From contig JAJUGZ010000003.1 of NCBI GenBank assembly GCA_029265715.1, positions 10,322-74,321 on the forward strand: a stretch of DNA of 64,000 nucleotides, in the 5' to 3' direction. This DNA comes from Bacteroidota bacterium. GTDB taxonomy: Bacteria > Bacteroidota > Bacteroidia > Bacteroidales > Prolixibacteraceae. Under the pieces are notes generated by a model, which was given only the letters and a program-made list of their open reading frames with translations, made no database searches and was not told where the DNA came from. Each line of letters starts with the position of its first letter. Position 1 is the stretch's first letter. The position numbers and the translations under genes were made by a program. Positions 22,581-37,239 of this stretch are shown here, in pieces.

Positions 22581-23324
22581 ATGAGAACGTTGTTCTTTCT
22601 ACTATTTCTGATTTTAACTACTACTGGCCTTTCCGCTCAGGACGTGAAAGAAATCGTGCGGAAAGCTGATGAGAAAATGCGCGGAAATTCAAGCGTCGGG
22701 ACTTTTACAATGACAATTGTCCGTCCGACCTGGAGCCGGACCATCTCGATGAAAAGCTGGACAATAGGCATGGACTATTCCATGATTTATGTGACAGCTC
22801 CCGCCAAGGAGAAAGGACAGGTATTCCTGAAACGGCACAATGAAATGTGGAACTGGGTGCCAGGCATTGAACGGTTGGTGAAAATTCCGCCTTCGATGAT
22901 GATGCAGTCGTGGATGGGCTCGGATTTTACCAACGACGACCTGGTGAAAGAATCATCGATTGTGAAAGATTACGACCATAAGCTGGCGGGCGAGGAGCGA
23001 ATTGATAATTATCCGGCCTACAAAATTGAACTTATCCCGCATGAAGATGCTGCCGTGGTTTGGGGCAAGGTTTACATGTGGGTAAGCAAAGCAGATTATC
23101 TGTGGCTGAAGGCTGAGTTTTACGATGAGGATGGCATGCTGGTCAATACCGAAATCCTGAGTGATATTAAGAAGATGGACGACCGGGTGATCCCTTGCCG
23201 GATGGAAATGATCCCGGCTGGCAAGAAAGGGCAGAAGACGGTAATGGTCTTCGAGGACATTGATTTTGATGTGCCCCTGAAAGAAGACTTTTTCTCGATC
23301 CAGAATATGAAAAAAGTAAAATAG
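22581..23324 (+). CDS. LolA-like 'outer membrane lipoprotein-sorting' periplasmic protein
   Basis: Signal peptide; IVRPTWSRT, APAKEKGQVFLK, SWMGSDFTNDDL motifs. Confidence 0.85.
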   Translation: MRTLFFLLFLILTTTGLSAQDVKEIVRKADEKMRGNSSVGTFTMTIVRPTWSRTISMKSWTIGMDYSMIYVTAPAKEKGQVFLKRHNEMWNWVPGIERLVKIPPSMMMQSWMGSDFTNDDLVKESSIVKDYDHKLAGEERIDNYPAYKIELIPHEDAAVVWGKVYMWVSKADYLWLKAEFYDEDGMLVNTEILSDIKKMDDRVIPCRMEMIPAGKKGQKTVMVFEDIDFDVPLKEDFFSIQNMKKVK

Positions 23325-23328
23325 AATT

Positions 23329-23355
23329 ACTGAAGGATTGAAGGATTGAAGGATT
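23329..23355 (+). repeat. left arm: (TGAAGGAT)x3 8-nt tandem repeat
   Basis: ACTGAAGG ATTGAAGG ATTGAAGG ATT starting 4 nt after the upstream stop. Confidence 0.9.
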
Positions 23356-23377
23356 TGCGATCAAAATAGATCTCTTT

Positions 23378-23775
23378 ATGGGAACGGTGGATGTTGACTA
23401 TAAAATCAAATTTAGGGAAGAATTTGAGCTCCGGCTTAAGTCATTTGTAATAATATTGATAGAATTAACGCGTGGAACTTCTTACAGTCTGGAAAGCAAA
23501 GTCGTTTTAAATCAGTTGCTTCAGTCTGGGAGTTCTGTTTGTGCAAATTACAGGGCTGCCTGCAGGGCTCGGTCAAAAGCCGAATTCTTCAGTAAGTTAA
23601 GTATTGTTGTAGAAGAAGCCGATGAAACAGAAATGTGGCCGGAGCTTTTAATTAGTTAATAAACGATTCTGAAGATACCAAAGCTCTTTATGCTGAAAGT
23701 ATCGAAATCCTGAAAATTATGGCAAAGGCCAGAAAAATGCAGGTATTTAATAAATTCAATCCGTCAATCCTTTAG
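23378..23775 (+). pseudogene. four-helix-bundle protein (TIGR02436 / 23S-IVP family), frameshifted
   Basis: QLLQSGSSVCANYRAACRARSKAEFFSKLSIVVEEADET motif; TAA TAA at 23657-23662, while the last helix LINDSEDTKALYAESIEILKIMAKARK continues in another frame to TAG 23775. Confidence 0.85.
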
Positions 23776-23785
23776 TCCTTCAATT
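23753..23785 (+). repeat. right arm: inverted 8-nt tandem repeat
   Basis: AATTCAAT CCGTCAAT CCTTTAGT CCTTCAAT T, complementary to the left arm, ending at ATG 23786. Confidence 0.85.
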
Positions 23786-25000
23786 ATGAACCTCAAACTT
23801 GCATGGCGAAATTTGTGGCGTAACAAGCGCCGGACCCTGATAACGGTCGCTTCGATTTTTTTCGGGGTGCTGCTCAGTACGTTTATGACGTCGATGCAGG
23901 AAGGGACCTATTCGCGCATGATCGACAATGTAGTTGGTTTTTATTCCGGGTATGTTCAGGTTCATGCTCCGGATTATTGGGCCAACAAGACCATCGAATA
24001 CACGTTGCCGGTAAACGATTCGTTGCTGAAAGCAATCGGAAATACTCCGGATGTGAAAACGGTAGTGCCGAGGCTTGAGTCGTATGCGTTGCTTTCATTT
24101 CAGGATAATACCAAAGGGGCTGCTTTGCTGGGAATTGATCCGGAGAAAGAAAACCAAATGACCAACCTGGCACACTGGATTGATCGGGGTTCGTACCTGC
24201 AAAATGGGGATGACGGGGCTTTGCTGGCTTTCAACCTGGCCAGAAACCTGGGCGTTGAAGTTGGCGATACACTGGTGGTTATTAGTCAGGGCTTCCATGG
24301 AGCAAGTGCCGCCGCACTTTTGCCGGTTCGCGGAATCCTGAAATTTCCGGCCCCAACCATGAACAACCTGGGCGCTTACATTGACCTCAATGCCGCGCAG
24401 GACTTTTTCTCTGTTCCCGATCGTTGTACCTCCATTGTGTTGATGGTTAACGGATATTCGAGGGTGGATCAGGTAAAAAGCCGGCTGGTTGCAAAATTTG
24501 GGAACCGGTACGAAATAATGACCTGGGATGAGATGGACCCACTGACCAAAAACATGATTGATGCCGATCGCTCCGGGGCTTATATCACCAAGGGAATTCT
24601 GTATGCCCTGGTTGGGTTTGGTATTTTTGGAACGGTAATCATGATGATGGCCGAACGGCGCAAGGAGATGGGTGTCTTAATCGCCATTGGGATGCAAAAG
24701 CACAAGTTGGGCACAACTCTTTTTTATGAAACGTTGCTGATTGGTCTGGTCGGGGTAATAGCTGGTTTTGCAGTTAGCTGTCCGTTAATCCTGTATCTGG
24801 TTTATCACCCGATCCCGTTTACGGGGGAGACGGCAAAAGCTTATGAACAGTTCGGTTTTGAGCCGGTTATGTACTTTTCGGCCAAATGGTTCATTTTTGC
24901 CCGGCAGGTGTTGATCGTATTTATCCTTGTTTTGTTGGTTTATCTGTATCCGCTGGCAAAAACTGCCAGGCTGCGTTTGACCAAGGCGCTTCGTGCGTAG
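23786..25000 (+). CDS. FtsX/LolE-like ABC permease
   Basis: LAWRNLWRNKRRT, large periplasmic domain, ERRKEMGVLIAIGM. Confidence 0.9.
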   Translation: MNLKLAWRNLWRNKRRTLITVASIFFGVLLSTFMTSMQEGTYSRMIDNVVGFYSGYVQVHAPDYWANKTIEYTLPVNDSLLKAIGNTPDVKTVVPRLESYALLSFQDNTKGAALLGIDPEKENQMTNLAHWIDRGSYLQNGDDGALLAFNLARNLGVEVGDTLVVISQGFHGASAAALLPVRGILKFPAPTMNNLGAYIDLNAAQDFFSVPDRCTSIVLMVNGYSRVDQVKSRLVAKFGNRYEIMTWDEMDPLTKNMIDADRSGAYITKGILYALVGFGIFGTVIMMMAERRKEMGVLIAIGMQKHKLGTTLFYETLLIGLVGVIAGFAVSCPLILYLVYHPIPFTGETAKAYEQFGFEPVMYFSAKWFIFARQVLIVFILVLLVYLYPLAKTARLRLTKALRA

Positions 25001-25003
25001 AAG

Positions 25004-25196
25004 CTGAAGGATTGAATAGTAGTGAGTAGTGAGTAGCGAGACCAGAAATTGATTATTGATCACTCAAAATTCAACATTCAGAATTCGAGACTCGAGTCTC
25101 TTTTCTTGATACTTGATACTTGAAGCTTGAAGCTTGATACTTGATGCCGGATGGTTGCCCTGTGATGTTTGGGTTAACTAAACTCAGGTACTCAGG
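25004..25196 (+). repeat. stack of several different 7/8-nt tandem repeats, no ORF
   Basis: CTGAAGGATTGAA; (TAGYGAG)x3; (ATTGATY)x2; AAATTCA ACATTCA GAATTCG; GAGACTCGAGTCTC palindrome; (CTTGAWR)x6; ACTCAGG x2. Confidence 0.9.
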
Positions 25197-25231
25197 GACT
25201 ATATTATTTAGGTACTTTTTAAAAATGAAAT

Positions 25232-26452
25232 ATGATACTTGCAGTAGCCTGGAGAAACATCTGGAGAAATAAAACCCGCAGCTTGGTTATTCTGGTTGCG
25301 ATCTGCCTTGGATTGGCCTCCGGGATTTTCTATATGGCCTTTTATTTCGGGATGGTCGACCAGCGCATCAACACGGCCATAAAAACCGAAGCATCCCACA
25401 TTCAGATACATCACAAAGAGTACCTGAGCAACCCGGATAAAAAGTTTATGATTGAAAATGCTGGTCCAGTTGGCCAGGAGATCAAACGGGTGGAAGGAGT
25501 GATCGCAACCAGCAACCGCATTATCCTGAACACCATGATACAATCTCCGGAAACGGGGGCGGGAGTGAAAATCTCCGGAATTGACCCTGAAGATGAAAAG
25601 CAGGTGACCAACCTGTATTCAAAACTGATTGAAGGGACGTATTTCGAAGACGGGAAACGAAATCCGATTATTATCGGGAAAAAACTGGCCGAGAAACTGA
25701 GGGTTAAACTGCGGTCGAAGGTGGTTATTACCCTTCAGGATATGCAGGGAAACATGACCGGCGCTGCATTTAAAGTGGAAGGTATTTATGAAACCTCCAA
25801 CACGGCATTCGACGAAACCTGTGTTTTTGTGCGCAGGTCTGATCTGGCCCCGATCATGTTGATGGACGATCATGCTTGTCAGGAGATTGCTGTTTTGCTC
25901 GAAAAGAACGACCAACTCCAGGTGGCCGACGAAACCATCAAAAGCAAACTTCCGGATTTGGATGTAAAAACATGGCGCGAAATCATGCCTGAAGTCAGTC
26001 TGATCGAAAGCAGCTTCACCCTTACCATGTTCATCTTTATCGGCATTATCCTGCTGGCTTTGCTTTTCGGGATTGTCAACACCATGCTGATGGCTGTGCT
26101 CGAACGGGCCAAGGAACTGGGCATGCTGATGGCTATCGGGATGAGCAAGGTGAAACTATTCCTGATGATTTTGTCGGAAACGGTTATGTTGTCGTTATTT
26201 GGTGGCTTGTGCGGTATCGTGTTGGGCTGGATTCTGACCCTTTGGTTCGGTGTGCAGGGAATCGACCTGGGGGCCTGGTCGGCTGCTTATAAGTCGCTGG
26301 GGTACGATACGCTGGTTTATACACGGCTATCCATGGGTATTTCGTTTCAAATTGCCGGTATGGTGATTGCTACAGGAATTATTGCCGCGATATATCCGGC
26401 TATGAAAGCGTTGCAACTGAACCCGGCCGATGCCCTCCGGATTGATATGTAG
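25232..26452 (+). CDS. FtsX/LolE-like ABC permease, second subunit
   Basis: VAWRNIWRNKTRS, ERAKELGMLMAIGM, LNPADALR. Confidence 0.9.
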   Translation: MILAVAWRNIWRNKTRSLVILVAICLGLASGIFYMAFYFGMVDQRINTAIKTEASHIQIHHKEYLSNPDKKFMIENAGPVGQEIKRVEGVIATSNRIILNTMIQSPETGAGVKISGIDPEDEKQVTNLYSKLIEGTYFEDGKRNPIIIGKKLAEKLRVKLRSKVVITLQDMQGNMTGAAFKVEGIYETSNTAFDETCVFVRRSDLAPIMLMDDHACQEIAVLLEKNDQLQVADETIKSKLPDLDVKTWREIMPEVSLIESSFTLTMFIFIGIILLALLFGIVNTMLMAVLERAKELGMLMAIGMSKVKLFLMILSETVMLSLFGGLCGIVLGWILTLWFGVQGIDLGAWSAAYKSLGYDTLVYTRLSMGISFQIAGMVIATGIIAAIYPAMKALQLNPADALRIDM

Positions 26453-26472
26453 CCGGCGGGATTTATATTTGA

Positions 26473-26505
26473 TGTCTAATGCCTTTTGTCTAACATCTAA
26501 TGTCT
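26473..26505 (+). repeat. orphan 7-nt tandem repeat arm
   Basis: TGTCTAA TGCCTTT TGTCTAA CATCTAA TGTCT just before ATG 26513. Confidence 0.7.
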
Positions 26506-26512
26506 GGGATAT

Positions 26513-27208
26513 ATGAATGTCATCGAAGTTAAGAAGCTGAATAAAATATACAACGAGTCGGAAGTGAAAGTTCAGGCATTGAGCGAAGTTGACCTGGCGA
26601 TTGAACAGGGCGAATTCACCGCGATTGTGGGACCGTCCGGTTCCGGGAAAACAACCTTCCTGAACATGCTTGGCGGGTTGGACGAACCAACTTCCGGCGA
26701 GATTCACATTGGAGGAACCGATATCAGGGGGCTGTCGTCGTCGCAACTGATCGATTTTCGGCTCCGGAATATTGGCTTTGTTTTTCAGGCCTATAACCTG
26801 ATCCCGGTTCTGACGGCCAAAGAAAACGTCGAATTCATCATGGAACTGCAGGGCGTTTCGAAGAAAGACCGGGAGGCACGAACGATGGAACTGCTGGAAG
26901 CTGTTGGTTTGAAAGGCCGTGAAAACAGCCGTCCGGCCAAACTAAGCGGAGGGCAGCAACAACGGGTGGCCGTTGCCCGTGCGTTGGCCTCGAAACCCAA
27001 ATTCGTGCTGGCCGATGAGCCAACGGCCAACCTCGACTCGAAATCGACTGAAAACCTGCTCGAACTCATGGAAGAGCTGAACCGAAAAGAAAATGTTACA
27101 TTTATCTTTTCGACGCACGATCAGCGTGTTGTGAACAAGGCGCGCCGCGTGATTACGCTCGAAGACGGCAAAATAATTCGCGATATCCGTAAAAACCATA
27201 CGATATGA
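26513..27208 (+). CDS. LolD/MacB-type ABC ATP-binding protein
   Basis: GPSGSGKT, LSGGQQQRVAVAR, LADEPTANLD, STHD. Confidence 0.95.
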   Translation: MNVIEVKKLNKIYNESEVKVQALSEVDLAIEQGEFTAIVGPSGSGKTTFLNMLGGLDEPTSGEIHIGGTDIRGLSSSQLIDFRLRNIGFVFQAYNLIPVLTAKENVEFIMELQGVSKKDREARTMELLEAVGLKGRENSRPAKLSGGQQQRVAVARALASKPKFVLADEPTANLDSKSTENLLELMEELNRKENVTFIFSTHDQRVVNKARRVITLEDGKIIRDIRKNHTI

Positions 27209-29143: not shown

Positions 29144-31258
29144 TTATGGTTTAACCACTAATTTGCCTGTCAGAATTTCGCCGTTGTATAATGCGCGGAC
29201 GATATAAATGCCTTCTTTCCAGCCCGAGGTATTCAGGCATGTGCTCCTGCTCATTATTTTTTCTTTCTTTGCTTTTAGCGCCTGGCTTTGGTCGTAAACC
29301 TCCAAATCCCATGAGGTAGTCTCATCAGGAATGTCTTCTTCCGACGGTTCAACGGATATGGTTGTTACATTGGTGCTTGGGTTTGGTGAGATCATCAGAT
29401 AATCGCACATGATCACATTAATATTCCTTGTTGTTGTTTTTTTGATGCCACAAGCGGTAACTGTGCATGATATATAGCCAGAGCCATCAAAATCTCCCCA
29501 GACAGTACATGTTGGGCTGGTCTCATTACTAATGGAAAGGATATCTGAATCCCAATAAAAAGAATCGCCATTCATCGCATTGGTATCATCGACCCGGTAA
29601 GTTAATTGATAGCCGCATTTTACGACATAATTTCCTGAAAGGACCGGAGCCGGAAGTTCGCTGGTGTAAACATCACGACGAGGAAGCGTAACTTCCCCGC
29701 ACCCATTAGTTATGGTTGCCCCGATCCACCCTGTTCCGGAGCTGGTTGCTGTAAATGTACAGGGGTTAGAGCCTTGGGCCGAACTTCTCGATAGGTTCGC
29801 GCTCTGGGTCCAGGTAATGGTTGCCCCGGGCGGTAAATTGGTAATTGAGTATGAGGCTCCGGAAGTACAGACCAAGGTGGGGCCGGAAATTAAAGGACTT
29901 CTTGTAGTATTTGTTGTTATTGTTCCGGAGCTGCATGGGTCAAGCCAGTTACTCAACCGGGTTGTATTCGTGCCACCCCCTGTCCATGATCGATGGAAGC
30001 ATCCGTACCAAAATTGATTTGAAGAATGACAACCTGGATAACCAGAATGGAGTTGTCCGACAACCCGATCATCCTGATTAAACAAAGGAGAACCGGAAGA
30101 TCCATGTTCTAAAGTTCCATCATCGATGTCAACATACCAATGATTTATTCCCCCAGAAGTCGAACCTTGAACGGTTTCTGGAATTGCGTCATTATCAAAA
30201 GAAATTTTCATTACATCTCCTGATGGATGGTGAATTCCTGTTCCTGAAGTTGGAGCTGTTCCACTTCTATCCCATCCCAGCCAAGCAAAACGTTCATCTC
30301 CTAGAGGAGAATCATCCATTTCCATCAACGCAAAATCAGAAGTATTCCAAGCGGCTCTAAATTGAGCTCCATTATAGGTAATTCCTGTGGTTGCTACACT
30401 TCCACCACATGATATCATTTTGTATTGAAACTTGAACATCCAATTCTCTGCATTAGATATCTCCGCGGAAGATAAATTTCCATCATTTGAGGTATCAATG
30501 CAATGAAATGCAGACAAAAAGTAAGGTTCAAAAGTCTGGCCTGCTGTCATCAGTAATGATCCACTACACAATTCCTCTCCTCCGGAGAGCAAAACCAAAG
30601 CCACTGCATCTGATTCTTCGTCCCAGACAGGAAAGCAGGCAATATCATTGTTACAACTTTCGGAACCTCCCAGGTTCCCGTATGACATTGGTCCCAAATT
30701 TTTATAGGCATGTACTACCCGTTGTATGGTCAAGCGCGATTCTCCAATCTTGTCTTTTGGTTCGAACAGGAATATGGTTACAATATCTCCTTGAATAAGA
30801 TCGGTCAGAAAATAACCGTTTTTCGTATTTTGTTTTGATGTTACTGGCCCGTATAATATTGTCCCAGACACGTTGGATATATACAATTCCGCACCATCTG
30901 GTAAGTAAAATTGATTGAAAACAAAATTGATAGAGTAGGCTCCTTTTGATTGGAACTCCATTGCCCAGAGACGTCCTCCTTCGATATTAACCCATTCTCC
31001 ATCAGATAGCGTGATATGGGTATCAAACCCTTTCCCGAAACGAAAAGGGATATCCACCTTTTCGTTTAGCTTGTCTTCATTAATAAATTTCTGAGCATCA
31101 AACGAGGGGAAAGTCTTTATTTTATTTGCCTTGGGATGTTCCCGGGTAGTCTTAACTTGCTCTAAAGCATTTTTATTTGGGTAAAATCTTGTTTCTACTT
31201 GTCCCTTCGTTGTCGATATAACAGACATAATAATTAGGGTTATGATTGATTGTTTCAT
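29144..31258 (-). CDS. T9SS-secreted trypsin-like serine endopeptidase (lysyl-endopeptidase-like) with pro-domain and Ig-like repeats
   Basis: Triad motifs SAFHC, SDFALM, GSSGSPLF; CTD ISPNPS...GIYIV...KLVVKP. Confidence 0.88.
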   Translation of the reverse strand: MKQSIITLIIMSVISTTKGQVETRFYPNKNALEQVKTTREHPKANKIKTFPSFDAQKFINEDKLNEKVDIPFRFGKGFDTHITLSDGEWVNIEGGRLWAMEFQSKGAYSINFVFNQFYLPDGAELYISNVSGTILYGPVTSKQNTKNGYFLTDLIQGDIVTIFLFEPKDKIGESRLTIQRVVHAYKNLGPMSYGNLGGSESCNNDIACFPVWDEESDAVALVLLSGGEELCSGSLLMTAGQTFEPYFLSAFHCIDTSNDGNLSSAEISNAENWMFKFQYKMISCGGSVATTGITYNGAQFRAAWNTSDFALMEMDDSPLGDERFAWLGWDRSGTAPTSGTGIHHPSGDVMKISFDNDAIPETVQGSTSGGINHWYVDIDDGTLEHGSSGSPLFNQDDRVVGQLHSGYPGCHSSNQFWYGCFHRSWTGGGTNTTRLSNWLDPCSSGTITTNTTRSPLISGPTLVCTSGASYSITNLPPGATITWTQSANLSRSSAQGSNPCTFTATSSGTGWIGATITNGCGEVTLPRRDVYTSELPAPVLSGNYVVKCGYQLTYRVDDTNAMNGDSFYWDSDILSISNETSPTCTVWGDFDGSGYISCTVTACGIKKTTTRNINVIMCDYLMISPNPSTNVTTISVEPSEEDIPDETTSWDLEVYDQSQALKAKKEKIMSRSTCLNTSGWKEGIYIVRALYNGEILTGKLVVKP

Positions 31259-35511: not shown

Positions 35512-35523
35512 CGGATAATCGTT

Positions 35524-35558
35524 TGAAGTTACAAGATACGTGTTACGGGTAACGTGGT
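35524..35558 (-). repeat. orphan degenerate 7-nt tandem repeat arm
   Basis: Minus strand ACCACGT TACCCGT AACACGT ATCTTGT AACTTCA just before the permease ATG. Confidence 0.55.
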
Positions 35559-35720
35559 TTGCATCGAGTCTGTTTCTTGAAATTTTATATTGGATATTTC
35601 AATTTGCTGTTGTCTTTATTGTCTCAGTTAGATTTGTTGTCATTGTTGTTTCAAAAAGTCTATTGTGATCTACTGTGTCTATGTGTTTTTTTATACTGTG
35701 ACAAAATATTGCAATGTCAG

Positions 35721-36827: not shown

Positions 36828-36838
36828 AGTTTAATCAT

Positions 36839-36859
36839 GAGTAGCGAGTAACGAGTAAA
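36839..36859 (-). repeat. right arm of four-helix-bundle cassette 2
   Basis: Minus strand TTTACTC GTTACTC GCTACTC. Confidence 0.85.
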
Positions 36860-36882
36860 ATGGGCTCGCGTTCGGTTGTTCG

Positions 36883-37239
36883 CTATTTGTTGTTTATTGA
36901 TCGTTGAAGACCGCTTATCATTTTTTGTATTTCATCCAATTTCTGAGTCAATGATTCGAAATCGGGTTGGCTTACGTAGTTTAGTTCGTGTGCGATGATG
37001 AGTTGAGTCTCGAGTTCAAACGAAGAACCCTTGGCAATATTTAAAAAGTGGATGAAGTCTTCCGGGCTCATTCTTCCAGCACCTTCGGCAATATTTGAAG
37101 GAATAGAAGACGCAGCTCTTCGGATTTGTGATGTCAGTCCGTAGCCTTCTTCCGTTGGAAAGGTCTGAGTGATTTTGTATATCAAGATCACTAATTCAAT
37201 GGCCCTTTGCCAAACTTTCAATTCTTTGAAATTATTCAT
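36883..37239 (-). CDS. four-helix-bundle protein (TIGR02436 / 23S-IVP family), intact
   Basis: MNNFKELKVWQRA, FPTEEGYGLTSQIRRAASSIPSNIAEG, FLNIAKGSSFELETQL; real start ATG 37239. Confidence 0.95.
   Translation of the reverse strand: MNNFKELKVWQRAIELVILIYKITQTFPTEEGYGLTSQIRRAASSIPSNIAEGAGRMSPEDFIHFLNIAKGSSFELETQLIIAHELNYVSQPDFESLTQKLDEIQKMISGLQRSINNK

Follow-up and report, generated by a model that had tools for sequence, protein, structure and literature searches.

A repeat-filled spacer between two permease genes of a Prolixibacteraceae-like bacterium as a probable composite of decaying cassette arms

The 231-nt spacer at positions 25001-25231 of the analyzed window (the whole 64,000-nt stretch of DNA) separates two co-oriented LolE/FtsX-type ABC permease genes and is probably made up of cassette arms in decay, a composite that changes through slippage and recombination. 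Most likely, it represents the wreckage of cassettes and not a working gene or signal. The cassettes in question are of the IVS type: they are 460-610 nt long, carry a gene for a four-helix-bundle protein (FHB; TIGR02436/PF05635, 23S-rRNA-intervening-sequence type) flanked by a pair of inverted arrays whose units measure 7-8 nt, and sit just past the stop codon of one operon gene, ~ 13 nt ahead of the next start codon. The first-pass annotation had described the spacer as the scar of repeated nested insertions and losses of such cassettes. That description is partly supported, as the spacer contains an insertion, is polymorphic, is composed of arm units and belongs to a lineage in which cassettes turn over; however, no remnant of cargo was detected in it, and nesting is moderately supported for two layers only.

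The junction, its repeats and its alleles

The source of the window is a Prolixibacteraceae-like bacterium of the phylum Bacteroidota whose best relatives in a species-level genome collection show 70-76% protein identity, and exact-protein look-ups of five window proteins gave no match. The two permease genes belong to one operon with a LolA-like gene and an ABC ATPase gene. The features of this operon, of the junction and of two further loci in the window are as follows.

22581-23324: LolA-like gene, same operon as permease genes 1 and 2
23325-23785, + strand: cassette 1, a frameshifted TIGR02436 pseudogene flanked by arms of (TGAAGGAT)3 and of TTCAATCC-type units
23786-25000, + strand: permease gene 1, LolE/FtsX-type
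24998-25000, + strand: TAG stop codon of permease gene 1; the inserted material starts 3 nt downstream
25004-25016, + strand: orphan A-type arm unit CTGAAGGATTGAA, octamer family TGAAGGAT / GGATTGAA
25017-25040, + strand: B-type heptamer array, TAG followed by (TAGTGAG)2 and TAGCGAG, GAGTAGY family, with the three units at 25020-25040
25048-25061, + strand: (ATTGATY)2, as ATTGATT and ATTGATC; the breakpoint of a 229-nt strain indel follows 25060
25062-25150, + strand: inner gene-less arm-arm hairpin, RNA fold of -22.8 kcal/mol (z -3.11, 0/200 shuffles)
25067-25087, + strand: xTTCAxx units AAATTCA, ACATTCA and GAATTCG, left arm of the inner hairpin
25087-25100, + strand: perfect palindrome GAGACTCGAGTCTC, continuing from the xTTCAxx units
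25105-25146, + strand: six CTTGA(TA/AG/TG), that is, CTTGAWR heptamers (family C), right arm of the inner hairpin
25147-25181, + strand: non-repetitive filler CCGGATGGTTGCCCTGTGATGTTTGGGTTAACTAA, the same in sister strains L053 and L054, the alleles that reach that far
25182-25197, + strand: E octamers ACTCAGGT/ACTCAGGG, a probable right-hand counterpart of the B array, decayed
25214-25231, + strand: retained ancestral pre-start spacer ACTTTTTAAAAATGAAAT, adjoining the ATG of permease gene 2 (25232)
25232-26452, + strand: permease gene 2, LolE/FtsX-type
26513-27208: ABC ATPase gene, same operon as permease genes 1 and 2
35512-35720, - strand: second gene-less repeat junction (209 nt), between two ABC-2 permease genes
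36828-37396, - strand: cassette 2, GAGTAGY-type arms enclosing an intact TIGR02436 gene of 118 aa (36886-37239)

All of the repeats named in the first-pass annotation were confirmed at these coordinates, as was the absence of an ORF: the 231 nt contain no credible ORF, only trivial ones (a 43-aa frame opening with TTG, and the end of an antisense ORF of 92 aa). The arrays consist of head-to-tail units of 7-8 nt, without spacers between them. Tandem Repeats Finder detected four arrays within the 231 nt and 28 in the whole 64 kb, so that 0.10 would be expected in a stretch of this size (Poisson P(>=4) ~ 4e-6). The annotated order of purine-rich left and pyrimidine-rich right arms could be reproduced on the left side, where the first 60 nt are 66% purine and 8% C, whereas on the right pyrimidines are only in slight excess (57%).

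Two of the unit families recur in the neighboring cassettes far more often than chance would predict. CTGAAGGATTGAA at 25004-25016 matches the left arm of cassette 1 (23330-23342) in 13 of 13 positions, as had been claimed; the 64-kb window holds two exact matches to it and one with a single mismatch, compared with 0.11 expected, while the counterpart in the sister strain (L053/L054) agrees at only 10/13 positions. For GAGTARYGAGTAR, allowing up to one mismatch, five window matches were found versus 0.12 expected, and they are confined to the junction and to both arms of cassette 2. The claim that the junction shares its unit with the left arm of cassette 2 is correct with regard to the unit itself, although that arm is the complement of the 3' arm on the transcribed (-) strand; the GAGTARYGAGTAR/GAGTAGY unit forms the true 5' arm of cassette 2 as well.

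Comparison with relatives indicates where the extra sequence lies. In more than 30 relatives belonging to several genera, the spacer between permease genes 1 and 2 is 17-21 nt long and has the form CCTTAAAAAnnnnGAATC (in one relative it measures 95 nt), and the 18 nt at 25214-25231 of the window match these CCTTAAAAAnnnnGAATC spacers. Because the relatives' spacer is this short and the matching 18 nt were kept, ~ 213 nt must have been added just past the stop codon of permease gene 1, and the window junction carries a lineage-specific insert. The junction has the geometry of a cassette: in 16 FHB-bearing cassettes, the arms start at a median of 1.5 nt past the upstream stop and end at a median of 13 nt before the downstream start, and here the insert begins 3 nt after the TAG and leaves 18 nt ahead of the ATG.

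Sister strains were reached via the homologues P0001 and P0121; through the permease P0001, which is 97% identical, three independent assemblies were found (L053/L056, L054/L057 and L055) with 98.6-99% DNA identity to the window. Length polymorphism among close relatives, which had been proposed beforehand as a check, was indeed found in the form of a 229-nt indel and of changes in unit copy number. In the sister strains, the junction is 460 nt long, with the 229 nt extra following window position 25060. This block is bounded by a 46-nt direct repeat, the copies of which are 83% alike and end in ATTGATYATTGAT, and it contains approximately five further GGATTGAA-type units and the arm-like segment CTCCGTGAAACTCTGCGTCTACTCTGCGGTT. 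That the 46-nt copies have diverged is compatible with an old duplication and later deletion, as well as with recombination between arms that imported foreign arms. The number of TAGTGAG units is three in the window and in L055 and two in L053/L054, the CTTGAxx units number six in the window versus four in L055, and the left arm of cassette 1 has three or two octamers depending on the allele.

Pairing between the arms

In the inner hairpin, the xTTCAxx units together with half of the palindrome pair with the CTTGAWR units through helices of 4-6 bp in a 7-nt register, in a manner resembling a gene-less (GTTTCAR)n/(CTTGAAA)n hairpin of a relative (L005, z -4.6). Outside it, a duplex between the B array (25017-25042) and the E octamers reaches -16.9 versus -9.4 +- 2.5 (z -3.0, 2/1000); when reverse-complemented, B aligns to E as ACTCA-CTACTCA-CTACTA, which was equaled by 10 of 500 shuffles. 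A partner for the A-type unit CTGAAGGATTGAA was sought in the junction by complementarity, and none was found. Thus, nesting is moderately supported for two layers, with the inner D/C hairpin (z -3.1) enclosed by the B-left/E pair (z -3.0), and is unsupported for a third, since the GGATTGAA-type unit is partnerless.

Taken as a whole, the junction pairs less well. Complementarity of its arms from end to end is not significant, the short form having a z of -1.5, a value equaled by 7 of 100 shuffles, and the long form one of -1.05; nor is the whole-junction fold significant in either (z -1.07 and -1.75, respectively). Among 16 FHB-bearing junctions, 15 have complementary ends (z <= -2), mostly between -3.3 and -5.3 with 0/100 shuffles as good; the arm pairing of cassette 1 has a z of -5.2 to -5.4 and that of cassette 2 a z of -3.0 to -5.4. 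Gene-less junctions at two neighboring operon positions in relatives are either well-paired hairpins (z -3.4 to -5.6) or arrays of a single polarity (z ~ 0), examples of the latter being 186 nt of (TTCTTGRT)n in L021 and five GAGTAGY units in L024. With its z of -1.5, the window junction is nearer to the single-polarity class, despite the inner hairpin.

According to a first alternative, the junction is a working gene-less RNA element in which the inner hairpin, with its palindrome followed by TTTTCTT, serves in the polycistronic mRNA as a processing site, a stabilizer or a partial terminator and thereby determines how much of each permease is made, the arrays on either side being incidental. 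We consider this explanation unlikely. The inner region does fold better than its shuffles, GAGACTCGAGTCTC+TTTTCTTGAT was detected as terminator-like, all four alleles compared have the same palindrome and adjoining sequence, and well-paired gene-less hairpins recur at the operon junctions of relatives. However, more than 30 relatives make do with their 17-21-nt spacer, the copy number of the arms differs between near-identical strains, terminator-like sites occur in the region at chance level (9 versus 5.5 +- 2.7), and the 5-bp stem by itself is unremarkable (z -0.04). Moreover, the Rfam search of 23200-25400 (E <= 1) returned 0 matches to rRNA or any other family, and the RNA runs (X12, X15 and X16) gave scattered contigs within the permease genes, none of them spanning the junction.

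Neighboring cassettes and the distribution of the units

The reading of the junction as decayed cassette arms draws on its surroundings, in which cassettes are found both with and without cargo. Cassette 1 has orthologues in nine relatives. Its FHB pseudogene (23378-23760) contains double stops at 23657-23662 and continues with its C-terminal part in another frame, both frames being matched; in the sister strain, cassette 1 differs by a 2-nt indel at 23604 and a replaced 3' segment. The protein of cassette 2 is homologous to PDB 2GSC and 2RLD.

Evidence of turnover is provided by the second gene-less junction at 35512-35720. At this position, the 99%-identical sister strain L056 (11108-11593) carries a cassette with an intact 131-aa PF05635 gene, and a relative with 83% protein identity (L058, 11108-11590) likewise has arms around an intact PF05635 gene; the divergent stretch reaches precisely from the stop codon to the following start codon. 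Since the FHB gene of the sister strain sits where the window is gene-less, the gain, loss or replacement of cassettes happens in this lineage.

Nothing comparable was seen at the permease junction itself. A resident four-helix-bundle gene, for which a check in relatives had been proposed, is absent from this junction in every allele and relative compared. An FHB profile built from 18 cassette proteins and run on six-frame translations of the 231-nt and 460-nt forms found no remnant (E > 0.5), with the cassette-1 pseudogene as a control scoring 8e-39.

Several further loci show related organization. The segment at 40081-40319 (-), upstream of an HlyD-like gene (39202-40080), has a hairpin/leader of ~ 100 nt in common with the 5' UTR of cassette 2 (37240-37396), of the form ATGAAATAGCCA...ATGGCTATTCCAT..GACAAnTnAAAAACAAATTATTnACG-ATG, and looks like a third cassette remnant joined to a host start codon. 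The 60-nt spacer between permease gene 2 and the ATPase gene (26453-26512) contains TGTCTAA-like units. In relatives, the same junction holds FHB cassettes (L004, L032), gene-less hairpins (L005, L009) or an NmrA-like gene (L003, L008), and in L021 it is made up solely of ~ 23 TTCTTGRT octamers. The LolA-permease 1 junction, which is the site of cassette 1 in the window, has a different hairpin family in L004, L005, L008 and L009, in which GCCCCnCCCC...GGGGAGGGAG is paired with CTCCCCTCC...GGGGGAGGC. Another small junction cargo is a PDDEXK_3 (PF13366) gene that lies in the orthologous operon with an ABC ATPase gene on either side (L058, 8211-8582). Outside the junctions, ~ 830 nt (30416-31246) of a gene for a 704-aa protein with PKD and Por-secretion-tail domains (29144-31258) are missing from the sister strain (425 aa), which is probably a repeat-domain indel.

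Another important issue is how closely the repeat units are tied to cassettes. In 690 kb comprising the window and its relatives, (TGAWGGAY)2 is restricted to FHB cassette arms, (GAGTARY)2 to this junction, cassette 2 and the gene-less junction of L024 in the same operon, and CTTGAWR to this junction alone. A scan of JGI metagenomes for (CTTGAWR)4 yielded 120 loci (790 kb), in which all seven FHB genes detected lie within 265 nt of the array. An FHB neighbor was found for ~ 6% of the sampled arrays and none for ~ 94%, the FHB profile being narrow, and 13% of the arrays have an inverted partner; because of these low proportions, the CTTGAWR unit is not exclusive to cassettes. The units of the junction are arm units of TIGR02436 cassettes: families A and B occur only in FHB arms or gene-less junctions of the 690-kb set, and family C flanks FHB genes on metagenome contigs. 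When the 460-nt form was compared by blastn-short with the window, the sister contig and 178 loci, the heptamer array alone was matched, and the filler segment 25148-25174 had 0 exact matches in the JGI metagenomes.

The metagenome loci with FHB genes nevertheless repeat the units of the junction. CTTGATA/CTTGAAA arrays flank FHB genes in L165, L084, L153, L082 and L063; those of L165 and L084 consist of CTTGATA/CTTGATG, exactly the units of the present junction, and L153, L082 and L063, which are GC-rich contigs from other phyla, show, in this order, a stop codon, (GTTTCAA)n, the FHB gene, (CTTGAAA)n and the following gene. Metagenome contigs also carry hairpins without a gene, of the form (GTTTCAA)n-loop-(CTTGAAA)n. 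Five of the proteins form one FHB clade with 45-53% identity, two of them found via the permease (L004, L032) and three via the array (L063, L082, L153), and all five genes have GTTTCAA-left/CTTGAAA-right arms; L070 and L084 form a separate clade with the arms in the opposite orientation. That arm unit and orientation follow the FHB clade across phyla hints at a joint movement of arms and gene or at recognition of the arms by the protein. The annotation further proposed that the junction links the two arm families into one system; the families do co-occur here, but co-occurrence is no proof of a common system.

According to a second alternative, the insert is a home-grown expansion of simple sequence: the arrays would have arisen in place by slippage in unconstrained DNA, and their likeness to cassette arms would reflect recurring slippage-prone motifs. 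We regard this as quite unlikely. It would agree with strain differences that amount to whole units, with the partnerless single-unit arrays of L021 and L024 and with the many metagenome CTTGAWR arrays that stand alone. Nevertheless, slippage requires a seed, which the ancestral spacer does not offer; the insert is placed exactly as cassettes are; the 13/13 and GAGTAGY matches to the neighboring cassette arms are far above chance; and the insert includes non-repetitive filler (25147-81) and, in the sister strains, a 190-nt mixed block.

The strain-dependent number of heptamers could also be thought to mark a phase-variation (contingency) locus that switches the expression of permease gene 2; this is very unlikely, as the arrays are located inside the operon, 85-210 nt ahead of the ATG, and outside any recognizable promoter, the 7-8-nt units are spread over several unrelated arrays, and the relatives have no such locus. 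An assembly artifact in a repeat-rich spot of metagenome-derived sequence, suggested by the contigs of one sample (X2) that break within the junction, is hardly credible, because the arrays are shorter than one read, the shared parts are base-identical across the three independent assemblies, and the 46-nt repeats bounding the indel, being only 83% alike, would not collapse.

Proposed origin and comparison with known systems

The preferred explanation of the junction as decayed cassette arms implies the following course of events. One or more cassettes would have been inserted between the two permease genes, their cargo being lost or never present, and the junction, functionless in itself, would since have drifted as replication slipped and arm repeats recombined with one another. 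In intact cassettes, the arms may pair and bracket the cargo in the manner of the RNase III-excised intervening sequences of 23S rRNA; alternatively, their role may lie at the DNA level, where they would be terminal inverted repeats or substrates for recombination. Mismatches in 31 arm pairs, 69 of them G.U-compatible versus 89 A.C (p = 0.13), show no evident selection for sense-RNA pairing, so that the DNA-level role is equally plausible. A much broader proposal, which we put forward as a doubtful speculation, is that FHB genes belong to a widespread and hitherto undescribed class of cassettes, present in several phyla, whose insertion site is precisely the gap between the stop codon of one co-transcribed gene and the start codon of the next, that their inverted 7-8-nt arrays co-vary with the protein clade because the pentameric protein recognizes its own arms (as RNA or ssDNA) for excision, insertion or transcript processing, and that junctions such as this one are the fossil record of the process.

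These observations bear on questions that have been open since 1993, namely, the function of the PF05635 'intervening sequence' protein and the origin of IVS elements. The family rides in cassettes within ordinary operons that follow a regular grammar, starting right past a stop codon, carrying inverted arrays of 7-8-nt units and stopping short of the leader of the following gene; cassettes exist with cargo, without cargo and as wreckage, and they turn over between 99%-identical strains. Orthologous cassettes in the cultivable Mangrovibacterium and Sunxiuqinia offer a tractable comparative system in which IVS mobility, the role of the arms and the binding target of the protein could be addressed. 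Mangrovibacterium marinum and M. lignilyticum (loci L023 and L020) have the orthologue of cassette 1. In practical terms, such junctions are hotspots of strain-level variation and of assembly breaks and may be mistaken for regulatory repeats or CRISPR-like arrays. A CRISPR array requires repeats of 24-48 nt with unique spacers, whereas the units here measure 7-8 nt and have no spacers between them.

Among mobile elements, MITEs and REPINs are likewise short, non-coding, intergenic, hairpin-forming and strain-variable. The junction differs from them in that no other copy of it was found beyond the CTTGAWR array in the window, the sister contig and the 178 loci, its termini are tandem arrays, and no target-site duplication is evident, the sole direct repeat being the 46-nt pair inside the long form. 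The genes called over ~ 33 kb of the sister contig include no transposase, RAYT, integrase, recombinase or reverse transcriptase. Integrons resemble the present arrangement in having small promoter-less genes in series between genes, imperfect inverted repeats (attC) able to form hairpins, and both empty and filled sites; however, arms occur here at both ends instead of a single 3' attC, neither an integrase nor attI is present, and the units are simple tandem repeats. The cassette proteins are also relatives of Avd from diversity-generating retroelements (NF033474 at 1e-6, below the cut-off; PF22296 matches). A retroelement of this kind was rejected, as the Avd model scored 28.9 versus a cut-off of 80, the Pfam-annotated genes of the sister contig include no reverse transcriptase, and no pair of template and variable repeats lies nearby.

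The closest likeness is to the intervening sequences of 23S rRNA genes. An IVS of 428-444 nt with terminal inverted repeats is associated with the PF05635 protein family and excised by RNase III, and IVSs with an S23p / PF05635 ORF are known in the 23S rRNA genes of Leptospira and Coxiella (PMC4990558); further work on rRNA IVSs has been reported (PMC11270868). The cassettes neighboring the junction encode the same TIGR02436/PF05635 family, are of similar size (460-610 nt versus 428-444 nt), have complementary termini bracketing the cargo, and occur in gene-less and pseudogene versions, just as ORF decay and ORF-less versions are known for the IVS. They differ in lying between protein-coding genes of an operon instead of in an rRNA helix, in having variable-copy tandem arrays of 7-8-nt units as termini where the IVS has a unique 28-bp stem, and in that the G.U test (69 versus 89) does not support excision by RNase III. 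The junction under study departs further, as it is without an ORF, its stem is partial, and it lies between two LolE/FtsX-type permease genes and not in 23S rRNA helix 9, 25 or 45. Compared with an intact IVS-type cassette, it encodes no PF05635 protein (FHB profile E > 0.5) and shares its arm units with gene-bearing cassettes as well as their placement after a stop codon and a short leader; complementarity of its termini is z -1.5 as a whole, -3.1 for the inner hairpin and -3.0 for B-left/E, compared with -3 to -5.4 in true cassettes.

In the searchable literature, we found no tandem-repeat arms around PF05635 genes and no operon-embedded PF05635 cassettes, although curators may have noticed them; a 23S_rRNA_IVP gene wedged between cmr3 and cmr2 has been recorded, its arms not being commented on (PMC3936711). 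We regard the cassette type as a variant of the IVS element that is new to the searchable literature, and the junction between the two permease genes would be a decayed example of it.
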